A stretch of DNA of 64,000 bases. It comes from Nitrospinota bacterium (lineage in GTDB: Bacteria; Nitrospinota; Nitrospinia; JACRGO01). Where the stretch lies: assembly GCA_016212295.1 (NCBI GenBank), contig JACRGO010000181.1, positions 232-64,231 of the forward strand. The letters are read 5' to 3'. This document shows, piece after piece, positions 8,011-29,461 of the stretch. The translations under genes and the position numbers were made by a program. Numbering within the stretch: position 1 is the stretch's first letter; every line of letters starts with the position of its first letter. Under the pieces are notes generated by a model. It saw only the letters and a list, made by a program, of their open reading frames with translations. It did not search any database and was not told where the DNA came from.

Positions 8011-9918
8011 ATGGCTATGAAAACCCTGAAGGGAAAATTTCTGGCGTTGTTTATTTTCTTCATTGCAGTGAATATTTTGGCGGGCGTTTTTGTTATAAAC
8101 ACCATTTCCAAGCAGAAGGCCGATGCGGTGGTCATCAATCTGGCCGGAAAACAACGCATGTTGTCCCAGAAGATGACCAAGGAGGCGTTCGCCATGAGCC
8201 AGGGCATAGAGAAGGAAGACGCCTTGAAAGGCACGATGGAACTATTTGAGAGGACCCTGGTAGGGCTTCTCAACGGAGACAGCGGGCTGGGGCTTCCTCC
8301 AACCAGGAATATCCAGGTAGTCGCCCAACTTAATAAGATAACGCCGCTCTGGAAGGACTTCAAGAAAAACCTTGATGCAATTAAAGGCTCGGCGAATGAG
8401 AGGAGCCAGGCCCTGGCGTTTATCTCCGGGCATGACGCGGAACTAATGGGGAAGATGAACGAGTCGGTTGAAATGATGGAAAAGGCCGGACTTCCTTCCC
8501 AGGTCATCAACCTTGCCGGGAGGCAGAGGATGCTGATACAAAAGCTGTCCAAGGAGTCGTCCCTGCTCTGCCAGGGAAATGTATCCGAGGAAACCCTTTT
8601 AAAGACCTCGGACCTTTTTGGCAAGACCTTGGATGGGCTTATCCAGGGCGACAAGGATTTGGGCCTGGCCGCCTTGGATGACAAGAATATCCTGGCCAAG
8701 CTGAAGGAAACAGAAAAACTCTGGAAGCAATTCCTGGAAAATATCCGGCTGGTCGTCAAGGGCTCCGGGGAGATCAACCAAGCCCTCTCATACGTCCAGG
8801 CCAATAATCTGGCCCTGCTCACGGACAGCAATCTCACAGTTGGAATGTTCGAGGATGAATCAAGGGGCAAGGTGGAGCGGCTGCAGGCCATCCAGTGGAT
8901 CGTGGTTCTCATAATGGTCCTTTCGGTCCTCATGGGCTGGGTCTTTATTGTCAGCCCTTTGGTCAAACTCCTTACCCAGACTGTGCAGGACATGACCGAA
9001 GGCGCCACCCAGGTGTCATCGGCGTCGGAACAGGTTTCCCAGTCCTCTCAAAGTCTCGCGGAGGGGGCCAATGACCAGGCGGCCTCGCTTGAGGAAACCT
9101 CCTCTTCCCTCGAGGAAATGGCGGCCATGACCAATAAGACCTCCGAAGGGGCGGCCTTCGCCAATTCCCTGGCCCAGGAATGCAGACAGGGGGCGGAGGA
9201 AGGGATGAAGGCCATGGAGCAGACCATTGCTTCCATGGGAAAAATAAACGATTCCACGGGCCAGATGGGAAAAATCATCAAGACCATTGAGGAAATCGCC
9301 TTCCAGACAAACCTGCTGGCCTTGAACGCCGCTGTTGAAGCGGCCCGCGCCGGCGAAGCGGGCAAGGGGTTCGCAGTGGTTGCTGAGGAGGTCAGGAACC
9401 TGGCCCAGAGAAGCGCCACCGCGGCCAAGGACACCTCCACTCTGATAGCGGAGAGTATTGCCAGGGCGGAAGAAGGGAAAAAAATCGCGGAAACCGCCGG
9501 CTCGTCCCTCACAAAGGTTTTGGAGGAAATCCAGAAGGTCGCGGAGCACTTAAAGCAAATCACCATGTCCGCGCGGGAGCAATCCGACGGCGTGACGCAA
9601 GTCAGCAAGGCCGTCACCGCAATGGACCGCGTGACCCAGCAAAACGCCGCCACTGCGGAGGAGTCCGCGGCAGCGAGCGAGGAGTTGTCCGCCCAGGCCG
9701 CCCATCTCAAGGAAGTGGTCAACAGGATTTTAAATTTGGTTACAGGCGAGGAAGGCTCGCTTGAAGCGGACCGGATTCCTTCCGTTGCGAGAAAACCGGT
9801 TTTGGCGAGAAAATTTCAGCGTCCCCTTCCCCAGGCGGCGCGAAAAAAGACCAACGGTTTCAAGGCCATCCCCCCGAAACGGGAAGTCCGTCCCGACGAA
9901 GTTATACCAATGGATTAG
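8011..9918 (+). CDS. methyl-accepting chemotaxis protein with duplicated PilJ/NIT-type periplasmic sensor repeats
   Basis: One N-terminal transmembrane helix. Two copies of the INLAG(K/R)QRML(S/I)QK(M/L)(T/S)KE motif. A second transmembrane helix and HAMP domain. MCP signalling domain [39 protein letters not shown]. Confidence 0.9.
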
Positions 9919-13304: not shown

Positions 13305-14294
13305 ATGAAAAGCACGCACGTGTCCCTTAACGCAGGAAAAGCCGGATTCCTTATAGCCTTTATGTCCCTTGTCCTGGCCATTGGGGCCTGCGCCCCGACC
13401 CGGCCAGCTCTTGCCCCGGAGGAAAAGTTCAACGCCGAGGCCCATTTCCCGGAGGAATTCCAGGCAGAGCGCGCCATTCCCAACTGCAACCAGAACGTGG
13501 TGTGGCATTCCTCAATGAAGGCGGAAACCCAGGACATGGCCGCTGAAATCCATGCCCTGTACGCCGGCCTGCTTCCAAATCTTGATGACAAGGCCAAGGA
13601 AGACCTTCTGAAAAAATCGCAAAAAAGCCTATCGAAAAGGCTGATCCGGAATTTATTGATTGAAGGGAAAAGCATCAACCTGGGGGCGTTCAGGATCAAG
13701 GGTTATTGCTGGACTGACGAAAACGGAAAAAAACAGCCGCTGGTCGCTTATAGATCGGCCATAACCCCCTGGCCCAAAAGGCCGGACAGCTGCTATCGCT
13801 CCCTGCTGAAAAACGGCCATATAAAAAATATCATCAACCTGTATGACGGCTCCATTCCCCTCAAGGACCATCAAACAATGGAGAAGGAAGTGGCCAAGGA
13901 AATGGGAGTTAATTACATTGATACAACCGACCCGCAAATAAACATTCCGCCTTTCCGCGAACTGGTGGAAAAGGAGGCGGACTTCAACAATCCGGAAAAC
14001 AGGCGGAAGGCGTCGGAGAGCGTGTCGCGCATCATCAACGAATTTGTCCTGAGCTCCAATGGAGAAGCCCCGAAAGGCAATGTCTATTACCACTGCGCCG
14101 GAGGCATGCACCGCACAGGGATTATCAGCGGCGTTATACAGAGGTGCGTGAACGGCATGGACATGGAGACAATCAAGAAAAGCTATGCCCGCCACGTCGC
14201 TTACGAGAACGAGGAAGTCAAGGGCGGCTTCGAGGAATTGAACCTTCGTTTCATTCAAGAGTTTGATTGCGGACTGATCAAGCAAAACCCATAG
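13305..14294 (+). CDS. secreted lipoprotein with protein-tyrosine-phosphatase (CX5R) active-site motif; PTP-like phosphatase or cysteine phytase candidate
   Basis: Signal peptide with lipobox (LVLAIGACAP). VYYHCAGGMHRTGIISGV matches the HC-X5-R-[ST] P-loop of PTP/dual-specificity phosphatases. RBS gaggaag. Confidence 0.6.
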   Translation: MKSTHVSLNAGKAGFLIAFMSLVLAIGACAPTRPALAPEEKFNAEAHFPEEFQAERAIPNCNQNVVWHSSMKAETQDMAAEIHALYAGLLPNLDDKAKEDLLKKSQKSLSKRLIRNLLIEGKSINLGAFRIKGYCWTDENGKKQPLVAYRSAITPWPKRPDSCYRSLLKNGHIKNIINLYDGSIPLKDHQTMEKEVAKEMGVNYIDTTDPQINIPPFRELVEKEADFNNPENRRKASESVSRIINEFVLSSNGEAPKGNVYYHCAGGMHRTGIISGVIQRCVNGMDMETIKKSYARHVAYENEEVKGGFEELNLRFIQEFDCGLIKQNP

Positions 14295-14715: not shown

Positions 14716-17700
14716 ATGTGGGCCGAAACCATAGAAAAACTGCTTAACGTAAGGCGCGGTGAGTGGAAAAGCGCCCTACTGATGTTTTTCTATTGCATGA
14801 ACTCCATTTCCGCCCCCTTCGTTATAGGCAAAATAGTTTCCAGCACCCTCTTTCTTAAACGGGTCGAGCCTCAATACATCCCTTATACCTACATCGGGGT
14901 CGCGGTCTTCACGTCCCTGGCGCTGTGGTTTTACACCAGGATCAGCCATCTGTTCCGGTTGGACCGCCTGATCATCGGCAGCACTGGCATATTGATAGTT
15001 ATTACCCTCGCCTTCCGGCTGGCCATAGCCGAGACCGCCGACGCCAGCTCCCTTGTGGTCCTGATAGTGATGGGCGGCCTCTATGTTTTCATTCAAATAA
15101 TGGGTTCCCTTTGCATCATCCAGTTCTGGATATTCGCCAACCATCTGTTCAGCACCAGGGAGGCTAAGCGGCTTTTCGGATTAATCGGCACTGGAGGGGT
15201 CCTTGCCAACATGCTCGGCGGAATGGCTGTCCAATGGTTCGTGGAGGACGGCGGCGTTGAAAATATGCTCTATCTTGTGGCCGGGAACCTTTTCGCGTGC
15301 ATCCTATGCGTTTTTTTCCTGGCACGGCCGGGCCATATAAGTTTCATTGAAGAGACGGGCGAACCCAGGCATCCGGCCAAGGCCGAAAAGGAAACCAGCG
15401 CCTCCAAGGGCGTTTTCTCGGATATAGTGAAATCCGATCTCCTGCTTGGAATCGCGGGAATCGTCATTATCACAAAGCTGGTAACCAACATCACGGATTA
15501 TCAGTTTAAAATGGCCATCCGCGCCACTTATGATGAAACGCAATTGGCCTACTTTTTGGGCGGCTTTTACATGTGGATAGGCAGCATAGCCAGCGCGATG
15601 CAGCTTTTGTTCACCGGACGCCTTTTGCAGAGATTCGGCATTTTATTCGCCGTCATTCTGCTTCCCGCCTGCCTGCTGGCCGCCTCCTTGGGCATTCTTC
15701 TTACCCCCTACCTCTTCTGGCCGGTTATAATGCTCAAGGCGTCCGACAGCATGTTCCGTTACTCCATTTATGACTCCACCTTCCAACTGTTCTTTCTTCC
15801 AGTGTCGCCCAAGCTCCGGTCAAGGGCCAAGTCGGCCATTGAAGGCATACTAAAACCCTCCTTCACCGGGATTGCCGGCCTCATGATCATAGGAATGAAT
15901 TATTTCCTCGATCCAGCCCAGCTCTCGTATCCTGTCTCGATTTTTCTGGTGATCTGGATTTGGCTGATAGTCCGCAACCATAAATATTATATAAGTTCAC
16001 TTGCGGACACCCTGCACCGCAGGAAAAGCTTTTCCGGCGGGACCGTCGCCACTGAGGTTGTTGACGATACCCAGGCCAACGCCCTGGTCGCGGCCCTGAA
16101 GTCGCCGGATGAAAGGTTGGTTTTGGCCATAATGGAAGTTCTGGCGGAATCGCCTCGAATCAACTTTGACGAACACGCGGCCGAGCTATTTAGCCACCCA
16201 AGCCCAAGGGTCCGCGCCGCCGCCCTGGCGCGACTCGGCAAGAGAGGGGATTCCCGTTATGCCGCCAGGATCAGCGGATTTCTTTCCGACGCGGATGAAG
16301 CCTGCCGCGCCGAGGCCATAACCGCATATTGCGCCACGGCAAGGGAAAGCGCCATGCCATTGGTGAAGGAATTCCTGAAGGGCAGGTCGCCGCTTATCAA
16401 GAGGGTGGCGCTGGCAGGCATTTTTAAATTTTGCGGCCCTGGGGGGGCATCCTTGGCCCGGGAAGAATTACAGGACATGCTCTCCTCTCCCGACCCACTG
16501 GTCCGCGAGGCCGGGGCCGAGGTCCTGCAGGAAATCAAATCCGGCCTTTTCATCGAACAGCTACAAAAACTGATCAATGATCCTGTTATAGAGGTGCAGA
16601 CGGCCGCCATCCAGGCGGCGGGTGAGCTGAAAAAACAAATTTTCCTGCCAATCCTGCTCGACAAATTGCGGAATCCCAAAACTTCCCGCGTCGCGACGGA
16701 AGCCATCTGGAAATTCGGGGGAGAAATTTGCGGTGCCTTGTCCGTGATTCTATCCGGCCAAGACAAGGACAAAGCCCTTCGTCTCGCCATTCCCAAAATT
16801 CTTTCCCGCATAGGCACGCAGGATTCCCTGGACGTTCTTTTCACGAATTTACAAACCAATGACGAGGACGTTCGCCTTAATATCCTGAAGGCAGTGAACC
16901 GTCTCCTGAAAAACAGCCTGCCCTCCGTCCTCGCGTATCCGAAGGAGCAGTTGGGGCTTCTGCTGCGCAAGGAAATTGAAAATTATTATACGCCTTTGCT
17001 GATAATTAAAGACGTGGGATTGGAAGCCGGCAATACGCTTTTGTATTTTGCCCTTCATGAGCGCATGGAAGACACAATGGCAAGGATATTCAGGATCATG
17101 GGCATTATCCACGGAGAAACCATGGAGACCATTTACATGAATATCTTTTCCAACGCTCCCAAGGCCCGCGCCAACGCCATTGAACTGCTGGACAACATCA
17201 TGGGAAGCGGCCCTGAAAAAAAGGCCCTGTTCGCCCTGCTCGAGTCCGCTGATGTTGAGACGAAACTGGAGGCCGGCAAAACTTTCTTTAACCTGGAGAA
17301 CAGGAAACCCGCTGAGTGGCTTTCGGAGCTTATGGATGACAAGGACCACGAGTGGGTGAGGGCCTGCGCCGTTAAACTTGCAGGAGACCTGAAAATGGCG
17401 GAGTTGCTGCCTGAAATCATGGACGCCTGCGGATCGAGCCGAGGCATAATCCGGGAAGCCGCGGTGTTCGCCCTATGGAAAATCGCTGGGCTTGATAAAT
17501 TGAAAGAGCTGGCGCACAATAGAAAAACTTCCGAGTTGCAAAATGAAATCAATGAATTCATACGCCGTTCAGAGCACGGAAAAAGCGCCATGATTTCCAC
17601 CCTGGAAAAAGTCCTCTTCCTGAAAAGCATAGACCTTTTCTCGCAAATTCCCGGCCAGCATTTGACCCAGGTGGCCAAGGTGGCGAAGGAAGCCGCGTTT

Positions 17701-18018
17701 GAAAAGGATGAGACCCTTATGGAGCAAGGTGAAAAAGGAGACTATCTGTACATCATCGTGGAAGGAGAGGTCAAAATTCTTATCAACGGAAAAGAAGTTG
17801 CACGGCGCGGCAAGAAGGAATGCCTGGGTGAGATGAGCATCCTGGATTCAGAGCCCCGCACCGCCACCGTGGCCGCGGCCACGGATGTCGTCCTCCTTAA
17901 GATCGATGGAGAGGATTTCTCCGATCTACTGAGTGAATACGGCGAGCTTGCCAAGGGGATCATCAGGATACTAAAGAAAAGGCTGGTGGAGGCCGAGGCC
18001 AGGTCTTCAGCAAAATAG
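14716..18018 (+). CDS. TLC/Npt-like nucleotide-transporter-type membrane domain fused to HEAT (PBS-lyase-type) repeats and a C-terminal cyclic-nucleotide-binding domain
   Basis: The N-terminal roughly 430 aa are polytopic and carry a motif (LLMFFYCMNSIS...IGKIVSSTLFL) resembling the conserved N-terminal block of the ATP/ADP translocase family. The middle has multiple HEAT-like repeats (PSPRVRAAALARLG, DPLVREAGAEVL, DPVIEVQTAAIQAAG). The C-terminus has a CAP-family cNMP-binding fold (GEMSILDSEPRTATVAAATDVVLLKIDGEDF). Confidence 0.7.
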   Translation: MWAETIEKLLNVRRGEWKSALLMFFYCMNSISAPFVIGKIVSSTLFLKRVEPQYIPYTYIGVAVFTSLALWFYTRISHLFRLDRLIIGSTGILIVITLAFRLAIAETADASSLVVLIVMGGLYVFIQIMGSLCIIQFWIFANHLFSTREAKRLFGLIGTGGVLANMLGGMAVQWFVEDGGVENMLYLVAGNLFACILCVFFLARPGHISFIEETGEPRHPAKAEKETSASKGVFSDIVKSDLLLGIAGIVIITKLVTNITDYQFKMAIRATYDETQLAYFLGGFYMWIGSIASAMQLLFTGRLLQRFGILFAVILLPACLLAASLGILLTPYLFWPVIMLKASDSMFRYSIYDSTFQLFFLPVSPKLRSRAKSAIEGILKPSFTGIAGLMIIGMNYFLDPAQLSYPVSIFLVIWIWLIVRNHKYYISSLADTLHRRKSFSGGTVATEVVDDTQANALVAALKSPDERLVLAIMEVLAESPRINFDEHAAELFSHPSPRVRAAALARLGKRGDSRYAARISGFLSDADEACRAEAITAYCATARESAMPLVKEFLKGRSPLIKRVALAGIFKFCGPGGASLAREELQDMLSSPDPLVREAGAEVLQEIKSGLFIEQLQKLINDPVIEVQTAAIQAAGELKKQIFLPILLDKLRNPKTSRVATEAIWKFGGEICGALSVILSGQDKDKALRLAIPKILSRIGTQDSLDVLFTNLQTNDEDVRLNILKAVNRLLKNSLPSVLAYPKEQLGLLLRKEIENYYTPLLIIKDVGLEAGNTLLYFALHERMEDTMARIFRIMGIIHGETMETIYMNIFSNAPKARANAIELLDNIMGSGPEKKALFALLESADVETKLEAGKTFFNLENRKPAEWLSELMDDKDHEWVRACAVKLAGDLKMAELLPEIMDACGSSRGIIREAAVFALWKIAGLDKLKELAHNRKTSELQNEINEFIRRSEHGKSAMISTLEKVLFLKSIDLFSQIPGQHLTQVAKVAKEAAFEKDETLMEQGEKGDYLYIIVEGEVKILINGKEVARRGKKECLGEMSILDSEPRTATVAAATDVVLLKIDGEDFSDLLSEYGELAKGIIRILKKRLVEAEARSSAK

Positions 18019-18065: not shown

Positions 18066-20150
18066 TTACCTCCCCGTCTCCCGGCCAAGAATCAACTTGG
18101 CGGCGTCACTGATTTCCTCGTTTTGAGACCAAAGGACCTCGTCCTTGCCGGATTTCAGGCATTCAAGGGCCAGCGTTAAGGGGCTTAAGCTGTCGGCGGT
18201 CCCGGCCGGGAAGGCGCTCTTAACAGACTCAAGGGCTTTTTCGCACAAAAGAGCTGTTTCCGGTTTTGCCAGTCCTGAAAAAAATTGGACCGCGGCGGGA
18301 AAAACGGCATTAGCGGGAAGGGACCGGATGAACGCCAGCCTCTCTTCAACGAAAAGGCCGGTTTCCTCGACTTTCCCTTTCAACGCCATTTTTTTGATGA
18401 GATAAAAATACGTCTCGAAGATCAATTGAATCATTGGACCGTTAAGTTGCGCGGTAAGGGATCCCCCTTGAATGTTCTTTTCAAAACGCAAGAAACAGTC
18501 CGCGGCCTCGTCGTATTTCCCTGAATGAAAGCAGGCGTCTCCAAGGTTGGCCAGTGAGGGGGGGGAATCTTTTTTTTCTTTCAACGCGCGGAGAAAACAT
18601 TCCTCCGCCTTCTCCATAAGGCCAAGAAAACGGTAATCACAACCCATGTTGTTCAATGCGCCAAAGTCTTCCGGCTTTTTTTCAAGGCATTTTTTATAAC
18701 AATCCACCGCCTTTTGGTGCTCCCCTTTGAAACTATAGGCAAAGCCGAGTAGAAAAAGGAGAGAGAACATTTGTTCCGGATCGTCACCGGAGTTTTGCAG
18801 AAGGTCCTGAATTCTCTTGATCGCCTCATCCCCTTTTTTCTCCTTCAAAAGCTTGTATGCTTCCGATATTTTGGAGTTTGAAAAAAAAGAGGGGCCCGGT
18901 TCCAGGTAAAAAAGTCCTGGAACCGCGGCCTTTCCGGATTTTACTCCTCCGGCCCCGTTCCCTTCGCCATATTTTTCGCGGGAATGCGCGATGTATAAAA
19001 AATTTATTATTCCCCTTGAACGGCCTCTCAGGTCTTTCACGTGCTCCATGTGGTAATACGAACAGAATAACGGGTCAGCCGCGCCATAAAAGGATTTTTT
19101 CGGCTCCAACCGGACCTTTTTGAGAAGCCCTCTGTTGATGAGCCTCTTCAGCAGGACGCTGACCTCCTTGCCTTCCCAGCCCAGGCGCCGGGCCAATTCC
19201 GACGGGGAAACGCGCTGGCTGTCGCGCAACAGGGTATCCAGAAGCTTCCGTTCCTTTGGCGGAGTATTCTGGATGAGGAACCGGTAATGAGGGGAGAGGA
19301 TATCCAGCATTCTCTGAAATATCCTGAAAGGGGAAAAGGATGGCGCTATTGCCAAGGCCTGATACATGGCAAGGGTCAGCCTGGGATTTCCCCTTGTAAA
19401 GTGGAAGAGGGTTTTAATAGCCGGGAGATTATTTTGAATTTGGCCGTCCAAGCGCTCCTTGCTGTTTAAGGCCGCCATTTTCTCCAGGACCGTTAACGCT
19501 TCCTCTTCCTTAAAAGGGGCCAGGGAAATAGTGGTAAAAGACCTGGACAAAAGAGGGGAAAATTTTTTGTTTTCCAGGGTGCAGGGAACGGCGGTCCCTA
19601 TGATAGACAAGCAGCCACGCGCGGAAAAGAAGGAGGCCATCAACTTGGAGGCAGCCGGATCGTGTAAAATGAAATCCAGCAAGTAGTCGAAATCATCAAT
19701 GCACAAAAGAATTTTCTTGTTGCTTTGGCGGGTGAATTTCTCCAATAATTGGCGGGCCTGCTCCCATTGGGCCGCAGGGTTTCTGAAGAGTCCTTTCACA
19801 ATGCGGTATTCCTCCTGGGAAATTCCGCAGCCACCCGGCAAGCCGGCAAGGGGGGCCAGAACTCTTTCCAGGAAGCAGGAAAAGGATGAAAAAAAACCGG
19901 CCCGACCCGGCAGAAAGACCGGTTCCCATTGAGAATTCAGTGGCGTTTTTTCCCTTGCTGCATGGAACGCCATCAAAAGAAAATGGGTCTTTCCTCCCCC
20001 CCACGGCGCCAAAATCAAGCCGTGCCTTGAGGTTTGGGAATCTCCAAGGGAATCCAGAAGGGAGTTAAACTCCACGTCCCTGGCCGTGAAAAGGGAGGAC
20101 AATTCCTCTCGTCCGTGAAATTGAAAATTAAAAAGGGGGGGGGAAATCAT
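18066..20150 (-). CDS. archaeal-type ATPase (ATPase_2/AAA_16-like P-loop NTPase) with winged-helix and C-terminal TPR repeats
   Basis: FHGREELSSL lead-in with Walker A ILAPWGGGKTHFLLM and Walker B ILLCIDDFDYLL. wHTH-like segment VSPSELARRLGWEGKEVSVLLKRLINRGLLKK. At least three TPR repeats (AYSFKGEHQKAVDCYKKCLE..., ALNNMGCDYRFLGLMEKAEECF..., LANLGDACFHSGKYDEAADCF). Confidence 0.7.
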   Translation of the reverse strand: MISPPLFNFQFHGREELSSLFTARDVEFNSLLDSLGDSQTSRHGLILAPWGGGKTHFLLMAFHAAREKTPLNSQWEPVFLPGRAGFFSSFSCFLERVLAPLAGLPGGCGISQEEYRIVKGLFRNPAAQWEQARQLLEKFTRQSNKKILLCIDDFDYLLDFILHDPAASKLMASFFSARGCLSIIGTAVPCTLENKKFSPLLSRSFTTISLAPFKEEEALTVLEKMAALNSKERLDGQIQNNLPAIKTLFHFTRGNPRLTLAMYQALAIAPSFSPFRIFQRMLDILSPHYRFLIQNTPPKERKLLDTLLRDSQRVSPSELARRLGWEGKEVSVLLKRLINRGLLKKVRLEPKKSFYGAADPLFCSYYHMEHVKDLRGRSRGIINFLYIAHSREKYGEGNGAGGVKSGKAAVPGLFYLEPGPSFFSNSKISEAYKLLKEKKGDEAIKRIQDLLQNSGDDPEQMFSLLFLLGFAYSFKGEHQKAVDCYKKCLEKKPEDFGALNNMGCDYRFLGLMEKAEECFLRALKEKKDSPPSLANLGDACFHSGKYDEAADCFLRFEKNIQGGSLTAQLNGPMIQLIFETYFYLIKKMALKGKVEETGLFVEERLAFIRSLPANAVFPAAVQFFSGLAKPETALLCEKALESVKSAFPAGTADSLSPLTLALECLKSGKDEVLWSQNEEISDAAKLILGRETGR

Positions 20151-20206: not shown

Positions 20207-21229
20207 ATGAATCTAATGGGGTTGTCAAATCCTTCATTTATTTTGATAACCAGCTTATGTTATCATAAAAAATTAAAAAACTTATATTTTCTTATAAACC
20301 AGGAGAAAAATTCCTTGGCCGAGGAAACCTCAACCAAGCCCAAAGGAAAAGGGAGCCCGGAATCCTACATAAAGCTTGCGAAGATTTCCCTTGGACTTCA
20401 GGAGTTTCAAATTGCCGCGGCCGCGTGTGAAAAGGGTTTGGCTAAATTCCCCCAAAATCCCGGTCTTCTTGTGGCTAGGGGAGAAACCCTTGTTCTGGCA
20501 TATAATTTCGGGAAAAAAGCCGAGCATCTGAAATCAGCCCTGGAGAGCTTTGAATATGCCTTGAAAATAAATCCGCATAATTACACGGCCAAATTTTTAA
20601 CCGGCCAGATATATATTCAATTAAAAAAATACGACTTGGCCGCTAAACGATTTTCCTCCATATTGGAAATCGACCCCAATGATATCCGGGCCAAGTCCCT
20701 TTTGGAAAAGGCCCAAGGCAAAATGGCGCCTCCCAAGGAAAAGCCGAAGGCGGCCCCAGTCAGCGCTGTAAAGGAAAAAATGGAAGACAAGCCGGAGGAG
20801 GAACAAGTCCAGGAAAAAGAAGCGCTTGCCGGTGACCAAAAGGAGGGTATACTGGACATGTCGGATAGCGATGAATCGGCCAACCACGAATTCCTGATCT
20901 CCCGTCTGGGAATCTTTCAGAAGCTGGAAGGAATAAAGAGCATCAATCTGGTGGACAAAAATGGGAATCTCCTGAAATGCCAAAAGAAGTCCGATCTTGA
21001 CCCCGAACTTCTTTCTTCCATGGCCGGGAATGTTTACAGATCCACTGTCAGGGTGGTTGATAGATTCCACAGCGGGGATTTCGTGTACGGCATGGTGATG
21101 TGCCAGAAATCATACATATATATAGTGGCCGCCCGGTGGGCGGTGTTGGTCCTGGAGACCTCCACTGACGCCAGCCTGGAGATTCTGGAGAAAAAAATCC
21201 ATCAATACCTTGGAGAACTGGACCTTTGA
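20207..21229 (+). CDS. TPR-repeat protein with C-terminal Roadblock/LC7 (MglB-like) domain
   Basis: TPR repeats at the N-terminus (ALESFEYALKINPHNYTAKFLTGQIYIQLKKYDLAAKRF), an acidic linker, and a Roadblock-like C-terminus (IKSINLVDKNGNLL...SSMAGNVYRSTVRVVDRFHSGDFVYGMVMCQKSYIYIVAARWAVLVLETST). An alternative TTG start at 20315 with RBS aggaga is possible. Confidence 0.6.
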   Translation: MNLMGLSNPSFILITSLCYHKKLKNLYFLINQEKNSLAEETSTKPKGKGSPESYIKLAKISLGLQEFQIAAAACEKGLAKFPQNPGLLVARGETLVLAYNFGKKAEHLKSALESFEYALKINPHNYTAKFLTGQIYIQLKKYDLAAKRFSSILEIDPNDIRAKSLLEKAQGKMAPPKEKPKAAPVSAVKEKMEDKPEEEQVQEKEALAGDQKEGILDMSDSDESANHEFLISRLGIFQKLEGIKSINLVDKNGNLLKCQKKSDLDPELLSSMAGNVYRSTVRVVDRFHSGDFVYGMVMCQKSYIYIVAARWAVLVLETSTDASLEILEKKIHQYLGELDL

Positions 21230-21591
21230 TACAGGAAATAGCGGCTATATTAAAGCAACTTAACGCCACGGAAGGAATCAAGGGGAGCCTTATAATCACC
21301 CCGGACGGCATGCCGGTCGCGTCTCTTCTGGAAGGGGGCCAGGACATGGACACAGTGGCCGCGATTTCCTCCTCCATTTATCTTTCCATCACAAAGTCCA
21401 TGGAAAAACTTGCCATAGGGGATGTGAACCGCTATCTTCTATGCACTGAATTCGCAAGGTTTTTTATAATAGGTTTAGGAAAGATGATACTAATAGTTTT
21501 AGCGGCCCATAACATACAAATCGCAAAGGTCAATGTGGCGATTTTTCAGGCAGCCAACGCCATCAAGAAATCAGGCAGATTGGACGTTTAA
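21226..21591 (+). CDS. mglB: Roadblock/LC7 family protein (MglB-like GTPase-activating partner)
   Basis: Roadblock fold pattern IKGSLIITPDGMPVASL...DTVAAISSSIYLSITKSM. TTG start overlapping the upstream stop (TTGA), with RBS ggagaa upstream. Lies immediately upstream of the MglA homologue. Confidence 0.7.
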   Translation: MIQEIAAILKQLNATEGIKGSLIITPDGMPVASLLEGGQDMDTVAAISSSIYLSITKSMEKLAIGDVNRYLLCTEFARFFIIGLGKMILIVLAAHNIQIAKVNVAIFQAANAIKKSGRLDV

Positions 21592-21593
21592 AC

Positions 21594-22763
21594 ATGGTTC
21601 AAATAAACTTCGCCAAAAAAGAAGTCAGTTGCAAAATCGTTTATTACGGACCCGGCCTCAGCGGCAAGACAACCAACCTGGAAATCATTTACAAAAAAGC
21701 GCCTGATAGCAACAAAGGCAAGATGACCTCCGTGGCCACGGAAGGGGACCGCACGCTGTTCTTTGATTTTTTGCCGCTGGACATAGGAAAAGTGGGCGGC
21801 ATGAACACCAAATTTCAGCTATATACCGTCCCTGGGCAGGTCTATTACAATTCCACCAGGAAATTAGTCCTCCAGGGCGTGGACGGCGTCATCTTCGTGG
21901 CCAATTCAGAGAAGGGCAAAATGGATGAAAACATCGAGTCCCTTAAAAACCTTGAGGACAATCTTAAGGAGCAGGGGATTAACATAAGCGAAATCCCCCT
22001 GGTGATTCAATTCAACAAAAGGGACCTCCCGGACGCCACGCCCGTGGCGGAGATGGAGGCTAAACTCAATCCTTGGAAGGTCCCTACCTGCGAGGCGTCC
22101 GCCTTCAGGGGGGAAGGCGTGTTCCCGACCTTGAAACTTACGGCCGCCATTGTTCTGGATAGACTGAACAAAAAATACGCCCCTAAGTCCGCCTCCGACA
22201 AGGCCATTGCCGAAGTCAACGGGCATAAGCTCCTCCTGGCCGATTTTGAAAAATTTTGCGTCACTCATTACCGCCTGTCCGGGAAAAAGGAGCCTCCCGG
22301 CGGCGCAAAATTCTCACGGTCGGAAAAAGAGAATTATCTCAACATATACATTAACAATTTCCTGATAAGGTTGGCGGCCAAGGAGCAGGGGATCGAGGCT
22401 GATGAAAAGGCGGTGGCCGCCCAGATAGAAGGCGCCGCTTCCAAATTCGGCTCAAAGGACAATTTTATAAAATACCTGAAAGAAAAAAATCTGACGGAAG
22501 AAGACTATAAAGAGGAAGCCGTTAACAGAACATTGTCCAATAAACTTTTAGCCGGCATAATACCGGACCACCGGGACAGAATCTCCCCTAAGGAAGAACA
22601 GCTTAGGGAGGTTTATGAAAAAAACAGGGACAAATTTCCTGGGGCCTTTGACCAGGAGAGGAAAAAGGTGGAAGCCCAGGCCCTGAAGACGAACAGACTT
22701 CAGGTAATGGAAGAGATGTACAAGGAAATCAGGAGCGAGGCCCGGATTAAAACTTATTTATAG
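21594..22763 (+). CDS. mglA: MglA-type Ras-like GTPase fused to a C-terminal SurA/PpiD-N-type chaperone-like domain
   Basis: Residues 1-195 align closely with Myxococcus MglA (CKIVYYGPGLSGKTTNLEIIY, TDRTLFFDFLPL, YTVPGQVYY, NKRDLPDA). Residues about 200-389 (VNGHKLLLADFEKF...NFLIRLAAKEQGIEADEKAVAAQIEGAASKFGSKDNFIKYLKEKNLTEEDYKEEAVNRTLSNKLL...) follow the SurA/PpiD N-terminal chaperone-domain pattern. One uninterrupted ORF. Confidence 0.8.
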   Translation: MVQINFAKKEVSCKIVYYGPGLSGKTTNLEIIYKKAPDSNKGKMTSVATEGDRTLFFDFLPLDIGKVGGMNTKFQLYTVPGQVYYNSTRKLVLQGVDGVIFVANSEKGKMDENIESLKNLEDNLKEQGINISEIPLVIQFNKRDLPDATPVAEMEAKLNPWKVPTCEASAFRGEGVFPTLKLTAAIVLDRLNKKYAPKSASDKAIAEVNGHKLLLADFEKFCVTHYRLSGKKEPPGGAKFSRSEKENYLNIYINNFLIRLAAKEQGIEADEKAVAAQIEGAASKFGSKDNFIKYLKEKNLTEEDYKEEAVNRTLSNKLLAGIIPDHRDRISPKEEQLREVYEKNRDKFPGAFDQERKKVEAQALKTNRLQVMEEMYKEIRSEARIKTYL

Positions 22764-22792
22764 CACCCAACCTCAAAACGGGGAGAGAGGCA

Positions 22793-23287
22793 ATGGACGA
22801 GTTTAAGGCGTCCCGGTTGATTTTCTACAAGGACGATATAGACCAGATTGAAAAGGTTATCGACGAGTTCATAAAAAAATCGGATTCCAAGTGCTCCATC
22901 CTGATAGACAAGGACGGGCATTTGGTCACCAAGAGAGGCCAGTCCACTCAATTCGATCCGGAGACTTTGTCCGCGCTAGTGGCCGGAAGTTTCGCCGCCA
23001 CAAGGGAAATGGCCAAGTTGCTGGGGGAAACGGAATTCACGGTATTGTTCCACAAGGGCCTGAAGGACAACATCCATCTTTCCCTCGTGGGGAACAGGGC
23101 CATCCTGGCCACCATATTCAACGACCAGACCACCATCGGGATGGTGCAACTGTACCACAAGGAGGCGTCCGAAAAAATAGAAAAGATATTCGAGATTTCA
23201 GCGAAAAAACCGAGGAAGGAAACAAAATTCCACGAGGATTTCGGTAAGGACGCAAAGCAGAAACTGGACGAATTCTTTGGAAGTTAA
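22793..23287 (+). CDS. Roadblock/LC7 family protein (third copy in the locus)
   Basis: CSILIDKDGHLVT...DPETLSALVAGSFAATREMAKLLGE...HLSLVGNRAILATIF Roadblock pattern. RBS ggagagagg. Confidence 0.65.
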   Translation: MDEFKASRLIFYKDDIDQIEKVIDEFIKKSDSKCSILIDKDGHLVTKRGQSTQFDPETLSALVAGSFAATREMAKLLGETEFTVLFHKGLKDNIHLSLVGNRAILATIFNDQTTIGMVQLYHKEASEKIEKIFEISAKKPRKETKFHEDFGKDAKQKLDEFFGS

Positions 23288-23550: not shown

Positions 23551-24612
23551 ATGATCGAAACCATTTTAGTGGCAACAGTTGTATTGGGGATATTGATTTT
23601 TATCCATGAACTCGGGCATTACCTCGCGGCAAAGAAGGCCGGGGTTTCCGTGGAAAAATTTTCCCTAGGATTCGGCCCCAAGGTCATAGGAAAAACCGTG
23701 GGAGAAACGGAATACCTGATTTCCGCCTTTCCTCTAGGCGGGTATGTAAAGCTTTACGGTGAAGACCCGGAGGATGAAGTGGAGCATCCGGAGCGTTCAT
23801 TTACCCATGCCTCGGTATGGAAACGCCTTGCAATCGTCGCCGCCGGCCCTGTCTTTAATATGCTGTTCGCGGTGCTCATTTTTTCCCTTGTCTTCATGGC
23901 CGGGGTTCCTACCCTTTCCTCAAAGGTCGGCGAAGTCCAGGAAGGGTCCCCTGCCTTTACCGCTGGACTTCTCCAGGACGACGTCATATTAAGCGTTGAC
24001 GAAAAAGAGGTGCGCCGGTGGGAGGACCTGGTGGGGATCATCCACGAGTCGCCGGACAAACCATTGAGGTTCCGCATACAGCGCGGCTCCGGGGCGGTAT
24101 TCGACGTGAACATCACCCCTGAGGCCAAGAGCACGAAAAATATATTCGGAGAAGAAATCCATGTGGGGCTCATAGGAATTCAGGCGTCACAGGACTATTT
24201 CACGGAGCGTTTCAATCCGATAGTGGCCGTTTGGAAAGGCGCGGAAAAAACCTGGAAGATCACATACCTCACTCTGGTGAGCATCAAGAAAATCGTGGAA
24301 AAAACCGTTCCATCCGACAGCATCGGCGGTCCCATCCTGATTTTTCAAATGGCGGGAGAGCAGGCCAAGATCGGCATAATGAACCTGGTGTTTTTCGTGG
24401 CCCTCCTGAGCGTGAACCTAGGAATACTTAACCTTTTTCCAATCCCGATTCTGGATGGAGGACACATCCTCTTCTACCTCTTCGAGATCATCTTCCGCAA
24501 ACCGCTCAGCGTGAAGATCCGGGAAGCAGCCCAGAAGGTCGGCTTGGCCATGCTCATCACCCTGATGGTCTTCGCCTTTTATAACGACATAATGCGCATC
24601 TTTTCCAAATAA
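23551..24612 (+). CDS. rseP: RIP site-2 zinc metalloprotease RseP
   Basis: HExxH motif (HELGHYLAAK), PDZ domain and polytopic membrane segments. The C-terminal LDGGH motif is present. RBS aggagg. Confidence 0.9.
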   Translation: MIETILVATVVLGILIFIHELGHYLAAKKAGVSVEKFSLGFGPKVIGKTVGETEYLISAFPLGGYVKLYGEDPEDEVEHPERSFTHASVWKRLAIVAAGPVFNMLFAVLIFSLVFMAGVPTLSSKVGEVQEGSPAFTAGLLQDDVILSVDEKEVRRWEDLVGIIHESPDKPLRFRIQRGSGAVFDVNITPEAKSTKNIFGEEIHVGLIGIQASQDYFTERFNPIVAVWKGAEKTWKITYLTLVSIKKIVEKTVPSDSIGGPILIFQMAGEQAKIGIMNLVFFVALLSVNLGILNLFPIPILDGGHILFYLFEIIFRKPLSVKIREAAQKVGLAMLITLMVFAFYNDIMRIFSK

Positions 24613-28753: not shown

Positions 28754-29461
28754 TTACTTCTTTTCGGATTCGATGTTTTCCGGGACACTAAGAAGCTTCC
28801 CTTCGTTTTCAAGCGTTCGAAGCGAATGAATTTTTTCCTGAACAACCTTGACCAATTTTTTGTCCGCCGACCGAGGTGACGGAATATTAAGATTGGAATT
28901 TTTACGTCTCATGGTCAGATACTTGTCTATAATATCCAGTTCACCCTTTATCTTATCCTGCTTGTTTCGAAACCAGATATCTTTTATTAGCTCTCTGATT
29001 TCCCTAATTATTTCTCCAATGCCTGAAAAGCTGAAATCCCCTGGTGATGCAATGTGAATTCTCCGCACTCTCAATCTGTTTTCATCTGATGTGTACGATT
29101 CGATATCTAAATAGATATCAAAAGCCATTGAAGGCTTCTCGGCTATGTCATGTGCGAATGGAAACGGAAGTGGCGGAGGGTAAGGTAGCATGATCTTCTC
29201 TTCTCGCCACATTTGAATGTAATCGCGCCATATATGATAGAAATCGCGGCTCATGGGATGGTCCATGTATTTGTGCATTCGTTTCATTGATCGTTCCATA
29301 GCTTCAAAATTTTCTTCCTCCCGACGACGTTGAATCTCGACAGCAAGGAAGGCATCGTAGATTTTTGCAGCACTTGACACAAGAGTGAGGACATCGGAAG
29401 CACCCCAATCCCCTTGAGTCCGAAAGTTAATTAAAAGTGATGTTGATTCCGAATTATTCAT
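28754..29461 (-). CDS. hypothetical protein (no recognisable domain), AT-rich island gene
   Basis: ORF of 235 aa co-oriented with hicBA and hom. Its composition is AT-richer than the flanking core genes. Confidence 0.45.
   Translation of the reverse strand: MNNSESTSLLINFRTQGDWGASDVLTLVSSAAKIYDAFLAVEIQRRREEENFEAMERSMKRMHKYMDHPMSRDFYHIWRDYIQMWREEKIMLPYPPPLPFPFAHDIAEKPSMAFDIYLDIESYTSDENRLRVRRIHIASPGDFSFSGIGEIIREIRELIKDIWFRNKQDKIKGELDIIDKYLTMRRKNSNLNIPSPRSADKKLVKVVQEKIHSLRTLENEGKLLSVPENIESEKK

Follow-up and report, generated by a model that had tools for sequence, protein, structure and literature searches.

MglA in its canonical form has one domain and a length of about 195 amino acids. In the MglA/MglB systems of Myxococcus xanthus and Thermus thermophilus, mglB lies upstream of mglA. 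The C-terminal helix of M. xanthus MglB binds a pocket involving MglA helix α5 and controls nucleotide exchange (PMC6785124), and a second Roadblock protein of the same organism, MglC, does not act as a GAP and serves instead as a scaffold for MglB and further regulators (RomR/MglC/MglB complex) (PMC10329633). The MglA/MglB pair encoded on the forward strand of the window (the whole 64,000-nucleotide stretch of DNA that was analysed) resembles these Group-1 systems in its GTPase (E of about 1e-69, arginine finger R53) and in having a cognate mglB, with a conserved C-terminal extension, adjoining the mglA gene. However, the MglA carries a covalent 186-residue SurA-like domain, mglB lies downstream of mglA, and two more Roadblock genes, one of them TPR-fused, lie 5' of mglA; genes for RomR, RomX or Frz were not found within the window.

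The fusion is encoded by ORF 21594-22763 (+ strand, 389 aa, zero internal stops). Its product is GenBank MBI5186538.1, auto-annotated in both GenBank and UniRef and named 'SurA N-terminal domain-containing protein'. No paper describing a MglA-SurA_N fusion was found in the literature searched, and the statement in an earlier note on this DNA that such a fusion had not been reported is accordingly upheld for the papers searched but not for the databases. All four ORFs described in that note (the fusion and the flanking ORFs) are present, and orthologous fusions in related genomes, about which it had asked, were found at 20 other distinct loci, every one from Nitrospinota-type MAGs, with the ORF uninterrupted in all. 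These loci are independent, deriving from different assemblies and sources, and their products are 44-83% identical to the window's fusion protein, a recurrence which argues against an assembly or sequencing error (a lost stop or a frameshift) having merged adjacent mglA and SurA_N genes; no stop or frameshift interrupts the ORF in any locus examined. Public annotation does at times give the C-terminal domain as a separate protein of 190-204 aa (P0121, P0281 and P0282), as such an error would have it, but the DNA behind each of the three is one unbroken ORF of 408-409 aa whose annotated start is an internal Met/GTG, and these apparent stand-alone proteins were rejected as start-codon artefacts. 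Likewise, when 1.84 billion representatives were searched exhaustively with a profile, no stand-alone protein gave a score like that of the fused domain: its closest stand-alone relatives reached about 1e-20, and fusion-family members with a complete domain 1e-49 or better. The probability of an artefact is thus negligible and that explanation is effectively refuted. Purifying selection acts on both halves of the protein (dN/dS of 0.02-0.085 for the GTPase half and 0.03-0.15 for the C-terminal half), neither a signal peptide nor a membrane-spanning hydrophobic segment was found in it (maximum KD19 over the whole protein 1.03), and the ORF is shown to be a genuine single gene for a soluble cytoplasmic two-domain protein.

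The GTPase half (residues 1-195, 21594..22178, +) was assigned as a Group-1 MglA-type Ras-like GTPase on the basis of phmmer searches of the PDB and of its motifs. Residues 2-193 match T. thermophilus MglA (3t12_A) with E=4.9e-70 and M. xanthus MglA (5ymx/6h17/6hjh) with E of about 1e-68. Across 49 homologues the residues G19-P20-G21, S23-G24-K25-T26-T27, R53-T54, D58, V79-P80-G81-Q82 and N141-K142-R143-D144 are invariant, and T78 of the TVPGQ motif, while not invariant, reaches a conservation of at least 90%. Group-1 MglA has as its hallmarks the P-loop, R53/T54, TVPGQ and NKRD-type motifs (PMC4316618). An MglA orthologue with conserved P-loop, switch and NKRD motifs, as first read from the letters of the sequence, is therefore confirmed, and the conservation of these motifs is far more than chance would give. 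The AlphaFold2 (AF2) model of this half shows an alpha/beta GTPase fold with pLDDT mostly of 80-95.

The C-terminal domain (residues 204-389 plus the stop codon, 22203..22763, +) has a SurA/PrsA/PpiD-type helical chaperone fold without PPIase. Pfam SurA_N_3 matches residues 199-318 with 33.2 bits, or 36.2 bits when the C-terminal half is searched alone, a modest margin over the gathering score of 27.2 bits, and a family profile of the domain searched against the PDB recovers the SurA-like chaperones PEB4, Cj1289, HP0175 and SurA; the SurA/PpiD-type character that the earlier note gave to this half, and had left to profile searches to contradict, is thus borne out as significant similarity. The full SurA-like fold is kept in the AF2 model of the domain (pLDDT 94). 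In comparison with the periplasmic SurA-like chaperones SurA, C. jejuni PEB4/Cbf2 and Cj1289, H. pylori HP0175, PrsA, PpiD and leptospiral LIC12922, the fused domain is only 12-22% identical, lacks the parvulin PPIase insert, the signal peptide or anchor, and is cytoplasmic. It is far nearer the SurA, PrsA and SurA_N_3 family than trigger factor, and in comparison with the trigger factor C-terminal domain and Mycoplasma MPN555 the fusion has no ribosome-binding or FKBP domain. Its closest non-fused relatives are small, exported or membrane-anchored SurA_N_3-only proteins of 200-300 aa (e.g. P0125-P0180), most of them without PPIase, and these match the whole domain profile end to end with E of about 1e-17 to 1e-22. 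A signal peptide, lipobox or membrane anchor precedes the domain in 45 of the 47 closest stand-alone relatives sampled, in agreement with the earlier description of the domain as normally periplasmic. The fused domain is shown to have its origin in a large family of SurA_N-only proteins that are small and either exported or anchored in the membrane, and since MglA occupies the place of the relatives' signal peptide or anchor, it is itself cytoplasmic.

The two halves of the fusion evolve at different rates, the mean pairwise identity being 40% for the C-terminal domain and 72% for the GTPase, such that the C-terminal half diverges far more quickly; a loosely constrained spacer or tether would be in line with this observation, too. 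However, about 12 positions of the domain are conserved in at least 80% of fusions and present in less than 20% of exported relatives, and these fusion-specific positions are mostly polar or charged (C222, Y226, R227, K239, E244, K298 and E308). This patch suggests the interface for a particular partner rather than a generic holdase, although a contact with the GTPase of its own molecule would explain it equally well. Its composition also bears on the proposal of a GTP-gated targeting chaperone, in which nascent envelope or pilus-type proteins would have their hydrophobic or unfolded segments held by the SurA-like domain, to be delivered and released at a membrane receptor through the GTPase cycle. 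An analogous logic is provided by SRP54, in which a GTPase is combined with a helical signal-binding M domain, and by Get3. To our knowledge no role in targeting cycles is known for MglA-type GTPases; the fusion-specific positions do not form a hydrophobic groove, no data point to a receptor, and the neighbourhood links are circumstantial and differ among clades, making this proposal decidedly improbable.

Residues 196-203 (22179..22202, +) were delineated as an inter-domain linker from the AF2 pLDDT and the family alignment. The linker is short in the window's sub-clade and is replaced by a longer Ala/Pro/Lys-rich stretch in other family members, the distance from N192 to the start of the domain ranging from 12 to 74 residues (median 27). 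In the full-length AF2 model pLDDT falls below 50 only at residues 196-200, and the pTM of that model is 0.51 with each domain confident separately, as expected if the domains are placed independently; the two domains are connected by a flexible linker. In the window's sub-clade the SurA-like domain starts about 9 residues past GTPase helix α5, which forms part of the pocket for the MglB C-terminal helix in M. xanthus (PMC6785124), and the window's MglB retains its conserved C-terminal segment. The C-terminal domain might therefore dock, through its fusion-specific polar patch, on the α5 allosteric pocket or the switch face of its own GTPase and modulate exchange or hydrolysis or compete with the MglB C-terminal helix, acting as an auto-inhibitor or exchange factor and not as an output. 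However, with a pTM of 0.51 and a disordered linker the model gives no confident prediction of a fixed packing between the domains, the linkers of other members, which reach 74 residues, disfavour a geometry-dependent contact, and the GTPase surface is nearly as conserved as that of non-fused MglA (70-74% identity to Planctomycetota-type MglA lacking the SurA-like domain). Such an intramolecular role is considered unlikely.

The fusion gene is the third of a tightly packed four-gene module encoding a TPR-Roadblock protein, a 121-aa Roadblock protein, MglA-SurA_N and MglB, and this module is shown to be conserved. The first gene, an orthologue of the TPR gene that heads the module in other Nitrospinota loci (tblastn E=2e-38), encodes TPR repeats at the N-terminus (Pfam TPR_19, E=4e-13), then an acidic/Lys-rich linker, and at the C-terminus a Roadblock/LC7 domain (Robl_LC7, E=6e-7, residues 237-315 in the 340-aa ORF). 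Its longest ORF starts at ATG 20207 and was the one taken previously; the domain fusion stands, but the start is most likely TTG 20315 (20315..21229, +, 304 aa), as an AGGAG lies 9-13 nt upstream of this codon and the sister-locus gene calls (L020 and L021, 304-305 aa) start equivalently. The second gene (21226..21591, +, MBI5186537.1) encodes a small Roadblock/LC7 protein (Robl_LC7, E=9e-9), 41% identical to its equivalent in L002 and 38% (E=3e-25) to that in the Planctomycetota-type locus L022. Its TTG start overlaps the stop of the first gene (TTGA), so that the two are translationally coupled, and the 4-nt overlap recurs in L002, L003, L004, L020 and L021; the 121-aa protein and the TPR-Roadblock protein may dimerise with each other. 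This overlap, and the presence of three Roadblock proteins of which one is TPR-fused, had been recognised in the earlier note, and a Robl_LC7 match was obtained for all three. However, the designation there of the 121-aa protein as the canonical MglB-like one has to be revised. In the PDB its top hits are Roadblock proteins of the generic kind (9jue_D, 6e-6, and 7yh1_D) and do not include an MglB, whereas the product of the fourth gene (22793..23287, +, 164 aa, MBI5186539.1), with a Roadblock/LC7 domain as well as a conserved C-terminal extension, matches M. xanthus MglB (6h5b_B/6izw_B) with E=1e-30 and T. thermophilus MglB (1j3w) with 1e-17 by phmmer. NCBIfam MglB (Thermus type) matches this protein end to end with 93 bits, short of the 200 bits set as equivalog cut-off. 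Identity to its equivalents in five other loci is 49-77%, with the C-terminal LD[ED].F motif kept, and members of the cluster carry the JGI label 'predicted regulator of Ras-like GTPase activity'. The gene follows the fusion gene after a gap of 29 nt, with the sequence GGAGAGAGG ahead of its ATG, and the MglB orthologue is predicted to be the GAP for the fused MglA. MglC offers a precedent for an extra adaptor-type Roadblock protein beside MglB; in comparison, the window's module has two such extra proteins, one TPR-fused and the pair translationally coupled, and the PDB search with the 121-aa protein detected no sequence similarity to MglC.

Beyond these four genes the neighbourhood varies among clades. 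A gene for an RseP-type M50 site-2 protease with a PDZ domain (23551..24612, +; Peptidase_M50 E=3e-68, PDZ_6), an uncertain member, is the gene directly 3' of the module throughout the three-locus sub-clade of the window (the window, L020 and L021), separated from mglB in the window by 263 AT-rich nucleotides with promoter-like sites. It is absent next to the module in the main clade, where a TPR membrane protein and a PatA_N protein occupy its position. A divergently transcribed gene upstream (18066..20150, - strand) encodes a 694-aa P-loop NTPase/winged-helix/TPR protein, likewise an uncertain member, with strong TPR matches, MarR_2 (27.2 bits) and HTH_24, weak matches to KAP_NTPase, AAA_16 and ATPase_2 (E of 0.005-0.04) and a GGGKTH P-loop in its sequence. 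Its orthologue is found upstream of the module in L021 but not in L020, and thus in two of the three sub-clade loci, and neither it nor the transporter-HEAT-cNMP gene was found by the module in the gene tables of the main-clade loci L001-L005; of the two upstream neighbours linked to the system previously, the latter is not conserved and the former, in the sub-clade loci and gene tables read, was seen in those two loci only.

Main-clade modules continue with a large TPR protein bearing several long hydrophobic stretches and also carry the PatA_N protein, in which a hydrophobic stretch is found together with a T2SSG-like domain. In Synechocystis, PATAN domains have type IV pilus motor components as binding partners (bioRxiv 10.1101/2021.06.11.447907). 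No genes for the TPR membrane protein or the PatA_N protein were found near the module in the window's sub-clade, for which the membrane link consequently rests on relatives. The Planctomycetota-type loci L022 and L023 share an orthologous four-gene core, comprising a TPR protein, a Roadblock protein (about 120 aa, 38% identity to the window), an MglA with a C-terminal appendage (73% for the GTPase) and MglB (52%), and a PatA_N protein is encoded near the module in L022. Their MglA appendage, however, is not a folded SurA-like domain but a Pro/Ala-rich linker with one membrane-spanning terminal helix (KD19 of 3.06 and 2.64, respectively). This hydrophobic tail stands where Nitrospinota have the linker and SurA-like domain, and raises the possibility that the domain is an equivalent tethering or localisation module, which binds no client and only attaches or concentrates MglA at a site, for example through oligomerisation or by binding a membrane protein that the module encodes, with MglA still signalling to separate effectors through its switch regions. 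The flexible linker of variable length is typical of tethers, and the rapid evolution of the domain outside its small patch and the membrane-type proteins encoded by the main-clade module are in line with this. However, a 186-residue domain retaining its full fold under the purifying selection described above exceeds the needs of a simple anchor, the window's sub-clade retains it though the membrane-protein genes are not adjacent, and no amphipathic or hydrophobic membrane-binding segment is evident in the fusion protein. A tether is regarded as possible, at distinctly less than even odds.

The favoured reading, to which a probability of about 0.5 is assigned, is that the fusion would be a GTP switch carrying a built-in binding or adaptor domain, and we infer from the sequence comparisons that its output may pass through this chaperone-like or peptide-binding domain. 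By comparison with Thermus and Myxococcus, an MglB dimer would stimulate GTP hydrolysis by positioning MglA's own R53 and Q82, and the conserved C-terminal segment of MglB would possibly also affect nucleotide exchange. The coupled TPR-Roadblock and Roadblock proteins could pair as another Roadblock dimer, with an MglC-like or GEF-like part in scaffolding or regulating the switch. The SurA-like domain would serve as the built-in effector or adaptor, its family-specific conserved surface holding one particular polypeptide as partner. This would probably be part of a membrane-associated protein, a link to the membrane suggested by the tail-anchored MglA of the Planctomycetota-type modules and by the TPR and PatA_N proteins of the main-clade modules. 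With the partner held in this way by the switch protein itself, the nucleotide state and location of the GTPase would set the place and time at which it is bound on the cytoplasmic membrane's inner face.

The four plus-strand ORFs of the GTPase module described in the earlier note were all present, at 20207-21229, 21226-21591, 21594-22763 and 22793-23287. Pfam assigned TPR repeats and Robl_LC7 to the first (longest ORF 20207-21229), Robl_LC7 to the 121-aa product of the second, a small-GTPase signature together with SurA_N_3 to the 389-aa product of the third, and Robl_LC7 (E=7e-11) to the 164-aa product of the fourth, bearing out the latter as a third, downstream Roadblock gene. The TTGA stop/start overlap reported for the two upstream Roadblock genes was confirmed at 21226-21229. 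The ATG of the fusion gene (21594) follows the preceding gene after a gap of 2 nt, and the ATG of mglB (22793) is preceded by a 29-nt gap containing GGAGAGAGG. The TPR-Roadblock gene exists as claimed but probably begins at TTG 20315 and not at ATG 20207, since AGGAG lies 9-13 nt upstream of this TTG and the gene calls of the two nearest relatives place the start at the equivalent residue. In a terminator scan of the window, hits were no more frequent than in shuffled sequence and the plus strand of the module gave none, and Rfam (gathering score) and tRNA scans of the whole 64 kb returned no match.

The 389-aa ORF is unbroken, as expected of the single-gene fusion proposed earlier. Fusion integrity was examined in 20 distinct loci besides the window. 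In 18 of these the fusion was recovered as one tblastn segment spanning residues 1-412 of a reference member, and in the other two, the nearest relatives (L020 and L021), translation of the called gene gives the complete fusion; the fusion is in frame in all 20 loci. Both domains were found together in about 80 clusters of 376-454 aa, sharing 39-83% identity with the fusion of the window. Three database proteins (P0121, P0281 and P0282), which comprise only the C-terminal 190-204 residues from an internal Met or GTG start and whose records miss the GTPase half, were considered as naturally split, stand-alone C-terminal proteins and rejected, as the DNA behind each is one uninterrupted ORF encoding an MglA-SurA_N protein of 408-409 aa (L005:3386-4615, L017:5353-6579 and L018:5353-6579). 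When 1.84 billion representative proteins were searched exhaustively with a profile, no stand-alone protein scored like the fused domain; fusion members with a complete domain scored 1e-49 or better and the next tier began near 1e-22. Purifying selection acts on both halves: in pairs with unsaturated dS, NG86 dN/dS is 0.02-0.085 in the GTPase and 0.03-0.15 in the C-terminal domain. That the fusion arose from a sequencing or assembly error is exceedingly improbable, given that start-codon artefacts explain the short records and that the ORF is intact in the window and in the 20 further loci.

The exact protein is deposited in GenBank as MBI5186538.1 ('SurA N-terminal domain-containing protein [Nitrospinota bacterium]', from a 64.5-kb MAG contig). 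The statement that the fusion had not been reported holds in that no paper describing it was found in the literature searched, and fails in that the protein had already been annotated automatically. The main survey of prokaryotic small GTPases was restricted to single-domain proteins (PMC4316618), and one comparative-genomics paper on Nitrospinota makes no mention of pili, motility or GTPases. The database record also illustrates an annotation problem, as pipelines use one domain to name the protein and the GTPase half is sometimes lost to an internal start codon.

In comparison with solved structures in the PDB, residues 2-193 of the fusion matched MglA of T. thermophilus (3t12_A, E=4.9e-70) and of M. 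xanthus (5ymx, 6h17 and 6hjh, E about 1e-68), upholding the MglA identity proposed for the N-terminal half. The G1 motif GPGLSGKTT and the G4 motif NKRD are both in the sequence. Across an alignment of 49 family members, the P-loop residues G19-P20-G21 and S23-G24-K25-T26-T27 are invariant, as are R53-T54, D58, V79-P80-G81-Q82 and N141-K142-R143-D144, and T78 is conserved in at least 90%. Group-1 MglA proteins, as defined by Wuichet & Sogaard-Andersen 2014 (PMC4316618), have as hallmarks an intrinsic arginine finger beside the G2 threonine and a TVPGQ G3 motif instead of DxxGQ. Since the arginine finger, TVPGQ, the P-loop and NKRD are all kept, the GTPase half is assigned from its sequence as a bona fide Group-1 MglA domain and is predicted to be a GTP switch, with all catalytic residues conserved. 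An MglB-family gene within four genes, a further mark of the group, is found after a gap of only 29 nt on the downstream side, and the fusion gene is preceded by two other Roadblock genes. The whole protein is best classed as a multidomain variant that departs from Group 1 in just one respect: the group comprises single-domain small GTPases of about 160-200 aa and the fusion, at 389 aa, carries a second folded domain.

The SurA/PpiD-type reading of the C-terminal half was borne out by a profile check, in which Pfam SurA_N_3 (PF13624) aligned to residues 199-318 with 33.2 bits, and with 36.2 bits when the C-terminal half was scanned alone, above the gathering score of 27.2; nearly every member of the family has a precomputed PF13624 hit. 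A profile built from 18 C-terminal domains retrieved only SurA-like chaperones at significance from the PDB, with C. jejuni PEB4/Cbf2 (3rfw, 5.7e-5) as the best match, followed by Cj1289 (3rgc), H. pylori HP0175 and SurA (about 1e-3), and with PrsA as a weaker hit. The aligned regions cover the N-terminal segment and the extreme C-terminal helix-strand of these chaperones and skip the intervening parvulin domain. AlphaFold2 modelled the domain alone with a pLDDT of 94.3 and a pTM of 0.84 as two short strands, eight helices and a terminal strand. The top Foldseek match of this model was SurA (8pzv_F, E=2.8e-4, TM 0.61/0.65), with LIC12922, PrsA, PpiD, Cj1289, MPN555 and trigger factor next in order; the model has the helical fold of SurA-like proteins, including the N-terminal segment and the C-terminal helix-strand. 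The sole Rotamase hit of the fusion in Pfam (E=0.08 over 39 residues) is at noise level, and the domain, with 186 residues that are all helical, is too small for a parvulin insert. As the parvulin domain is absent, the domain corresponds, by the profile matches and the model together, to the chaperone module ('N plus C') that SurA-like foldases have, without the PPIase. In this the fusion differs from the SurA, PrsA, PpiD and PEB4 foldases, which have a PPIase domain and an export signal, lipobox or membrane anchor, where it has neither. Searched by itself against a word index, the C-terminal half found no homologue and missed even the parent protein, which was taken as a limit of the index and not as evidence.

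The next tier of the exhaustive profile search comprised 2,116 representatives at E 1e-10 or better. Its top-ranked proteins listed are mostly 200-300 aa long and match the whole domain profile end to end, with the domain starting 30-110 residues in. Among 47 inspected relatives, 45 carry a strongly hydrophobic segment (KD15 of at least 2.1) ahead of the domain, in the form of a signal peptide, a lipobox or a single membrane anchor, and a parvulin motif is present in only about six; these closest stand-alone relatives thus agree with the view of the earlier note that the domain type is normally extracytoplasmic. All five relatives scanned against Pfam gave a strong SurA_N_3 match, and the strand VA.VNG..I at the start of the domain is common to the scanned relatives and the fused domain. 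In the fusion, the MglA GTPase occupies the place of the export signal or anchor, and no hydrophobic segment was detected (maximum KD19 1.03, maximum KD15 1.43), on which grounds the fused domain is judged to be cytoplasmic. The C-domain of trigger factor is related and likewise cytoplasmic. A topology with a membrane-spanning segment between the two domains, placing the GTPase inside and the chaperone outside, was rejected, as no such segment exists in any of the 49 aligned members. The family is a clean example of how an exported chaperone fold can become cytoplasmic once another domain takes the place of its signal or anchor.

The two halves are conserved to different degrees. Mean pairwise identity is 72% for the GTPase versus 40% for the C-terminal domain, and between the window and the main clade of Nitrospinota loci the values are 69% and 27%; the GTPase is far more constrained. 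The linkers of the family are rich in Ala, Pro and Lys and range from 12 to 74 residues (median 27). In the full-length AlphaFold2 model both domains are confident, the junction is disordered (residues 196-200, pLDDT <50) and the pTM is only 0.51, so that no fixed inter-domain packing is predicted. Alignment of 49 fused domains with 38 exported relatives revealed about 12 positions conserved in at least 80% of the fusions and in <20% of the exported relatives, namely C222, Y226, R227 and L228, where the first helix ends, as well as K239, E244, K/R298, E308, A309, P324 and two lysines near 364 and 368. This mostly polar patch is a new feature on an old scaffold and is read as a specific protein-protein interface, directed either at another protein or at the protein's own GTPase.

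By sequence, the 164-aa product of 22793-23287 is the MglB orthologue. It matched M. xanthus MglB (6h5b_B and 6izw_B, E=1e-30) and T. thermophilus MglB (1j3w, 1e-17) in the PDB, and the NCBIfam model for MglB of the Thermus type spanned the whole protein with a score of 93 bits, short of the equivalog cut-off of 200. Its C-terminal extension of about 25 residues ends in LD[ED].F, a motif kept in six orthologues. In M. xanthus, the C-terminal helix of MglB binds an allosteric pocket of MglA involving alpha5 and promotes nucleotide exchange (PMC6785124). The SurA-like domain of the window's fusion begins only about 9 residues past alpha5, and because of this proximity an interplay between the domain and the C-terminal helix of MglB is conceivable by analogy. 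As a rival to an output role, the C-terminal domain might act on alpha5 or on the switch surface of its own chain as an intramolecular regulator; the conserved patch could serve such a contact, the full-length model predicts no settled arrangement of the two domains, and this role is considered unlikely.

The earlier description of 21226-21591 as a canonical MglB-like gene was not sustained. No MglB chain appeared among its PDB hits up to E=10, the best of which were generic Roadblock proteins at about 1e-5, and no NCBIfam match was found for it; the 121-aa product is thus classed by similarity as a Roadblock protein and not as an MglB orthologue. The 4-nt overlap of its gene with the TPR-Roadblock gene is present in the window and in L002, L003, L004, L020 and L021. 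Roadblock domains act as dimers, and on this basis the TPR-Roadblock and the 121-aa Roadblock proteins may form a heterodimer. A precedent for a second Roadblock protein as an adaptor is provided by MglC (PMC10329633), and a subset of Group-1 MglA genes is coupled to two MglB-family genes (PMC4316618). RomR-like genes were not seen in the window. Just one gene with a link to pili or chemotaxis was noticed there (8011-9918, plus strand); it encodes a methyl-accepting chemotaxis protein with two PilJ-type N-terminal sensors (PilJ E=5e-35, MCPsignal E=4e-46).

A scan of species-representative genomes, performed with the main-clade alignment and two peptide patterns and hence liable to miss members, located 14 loci, all in uncultured MAGs that bear the label Nitrospinota or Nitrospinaceae, or 'Nitrospirae' in three cases. 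No cultured Nitrospina species was among the hits, which with a two-pattern scan of this kind is not evidence of absence. The main-clade module consists of seven genes in fixed order, strictly conserved in main-clade Nitrospinota: a TPR(-Roadblock) protein, a Roadblock protein of about 120 aa, MglA-SurA_N, MglB, a TPR protein of ~640 aa with several long hydrophobic stretches and Cys-x2-Cys pairs (L002:9818-11734, with equivalents in L003-L019), a 410-aa protein that combines a hydrophobic stretch with a PatA_N/DUF4388 (PATAN) domain at the N-terminus and a T2SSG pseudopilin-like domain at the C-terminus (L002:11738-12970, likewise with equivalents in L003-L019) and a MoCF_biosynth protein. 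PATAN genes are known as occasional neighbours of MglA and MglB genes (PMC4316618). The sub-clade formed by the window, L020 and L021 has kept only the first four genes, and the TPR membrane protein, PatA_N and MoCF genes of the main clade are absent across the entire 64-kb window. In all three sub-clade loci a gene for an RseP-type M50 protease with a PDZ domain directly follows mglB (window 23551-24612, plus strand; L020:4189-5250; L021:7002-8063), in the position held by the TPR membrane protein gene in the main clade; this could be coincidental synteny or a functional link.

Two neighbours that the earlier note had placed immediately upstream were considered as parts of the system and dropped. 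The ATPase-wHTH-TPR gene was set aside, being upstream in just two of the three sub-clade loci, and the transporter-HEAT-cNMP gene was ruled out, as it occurs in the window only and is missing even from the nearest relative. The latter (14716-18018, plus strand) encodes a 1100-aa protein of unusual architecture, with an N-terminal TLC/MFS-type transporter, HEAT repeats and a C-terminal cyclic-nucleotide-binding domain. Ahead of it, the plus-strand ORF 13305-14294 (329 aa) begins like a lipoprotein (LAIGACAP) and did not match Pfam at E 1e-5 or better; its HCAGGMHRTG motif resembles the CX5R active site of protein tyrosine/dual-specificity phosphatases. Several further ORFs of 235-335 aa in the window (28754-29461, 51227-52234 and 62980-63939) are likewise devoid of Pfam matches at E <=1e-5.

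The nearest non-fused relatives of the GTPase are proteins named Planctomycetota, with 70-74% identity to the GTPase half of the window. In these, MglA continues into a long Pro/Ala-rich low-complexity linker and one strongly hydrophobic C-terminal helix with a KD19 of 2.6-3.1 (L022:6001-7122 and L023:6001-7080; also the database proteins P0083, P0088 and P0091), so that they look like tail-anchored membrane forms of MglA. The core in L022 and L023 is orthologous to that of Nitrospinota, with a TPR protein, a Roadblock protein of about 120 aa (38% identical to that of the window, E=3e-25), MglA with its tail, and MglB (52% identical); in L022, a PatA_N-TPR-beta-propeller protein is encoded just upstream of this core. 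It follows that the module is broader than Nitrospinota and that what varies in it is the appendage at the C-terminus of MglA, consisting of a linker and membrane-spanning helix in the Planctomycetota-type modules and of a folded SurA-like domain in Nitrospinota. The parallel favours a role of the SurA-like domain as a pure tether or localisation module, the counterpart of the tail anchor; with a folded domain bearing its own conserved patch set against a bare helix, this is regarded as possible, though a minority view.

The explanation preferred here, with a probability of roughly 0.5, is that the SurA-like domain acts as a built-in adaptor or effector, with MglB as the GAP and the Roadblock pair as scaffold or regulator. 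In such a system, MglB would be the GAP of the fused MglA, the Roadblock pair would scaffold or regulate the switch, the SurA-like domain would hold a particular partner polypeptide at the inner membrane face, and the GTPase cycle would control its engagement of that partner. The SurA-fold domain is covalently tethered, selectively maintained and furnished with a new conserved surface. A nucleotide-gated chaperone or targeting factor, in which the captured domain would hold a client polypeptide, such as a membrane protein or one of a pilin-like or secretion-system type, and release it at a defined membrane site under the control of MglB and the Roadblock/TPR proteins, is improbable. A GTP-gated targeting chaperone with the logic of SRP54 or Get3 is likewise considered unlikely as an account of the fusion. 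If the chaperone or targeting reading were true, SRP54/Get3-like logic would have been built from entirely different parts, and polarity GTPases would be tied directly to envelope protein biogenesis.

The components are all of known kinds, namely MglA, MglB, Roadblock, TPR and the SurA-like fold. What is new is a lineage-wide MglA module whose switch carries a relocated chaperone-fold domain, and a parallel tail-anchored version elsewhere. No published study of the MglA switch in the lineages with these modules was found. MglA is the model bacterial Ras-like polarity switch and, to our knowledge, is in every studied case a free single-domain protein with separate effectors. Throughout the lineage with the fusion, MglA bears a second, permanently attached folded domain whose family is otherwise extracytoplasmic. 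If this domain is the output or adaptor, the fusion would apparently be the first bacterial small GTPase with its effector on the same chain, and the isolated domain could be used to fish out the partner. The tail-anchored parallel suggests a wider class of MglA module, composed of TPR-Roadblock, Roadblock, MglA-X and MglB, that seems to work at the membrane.
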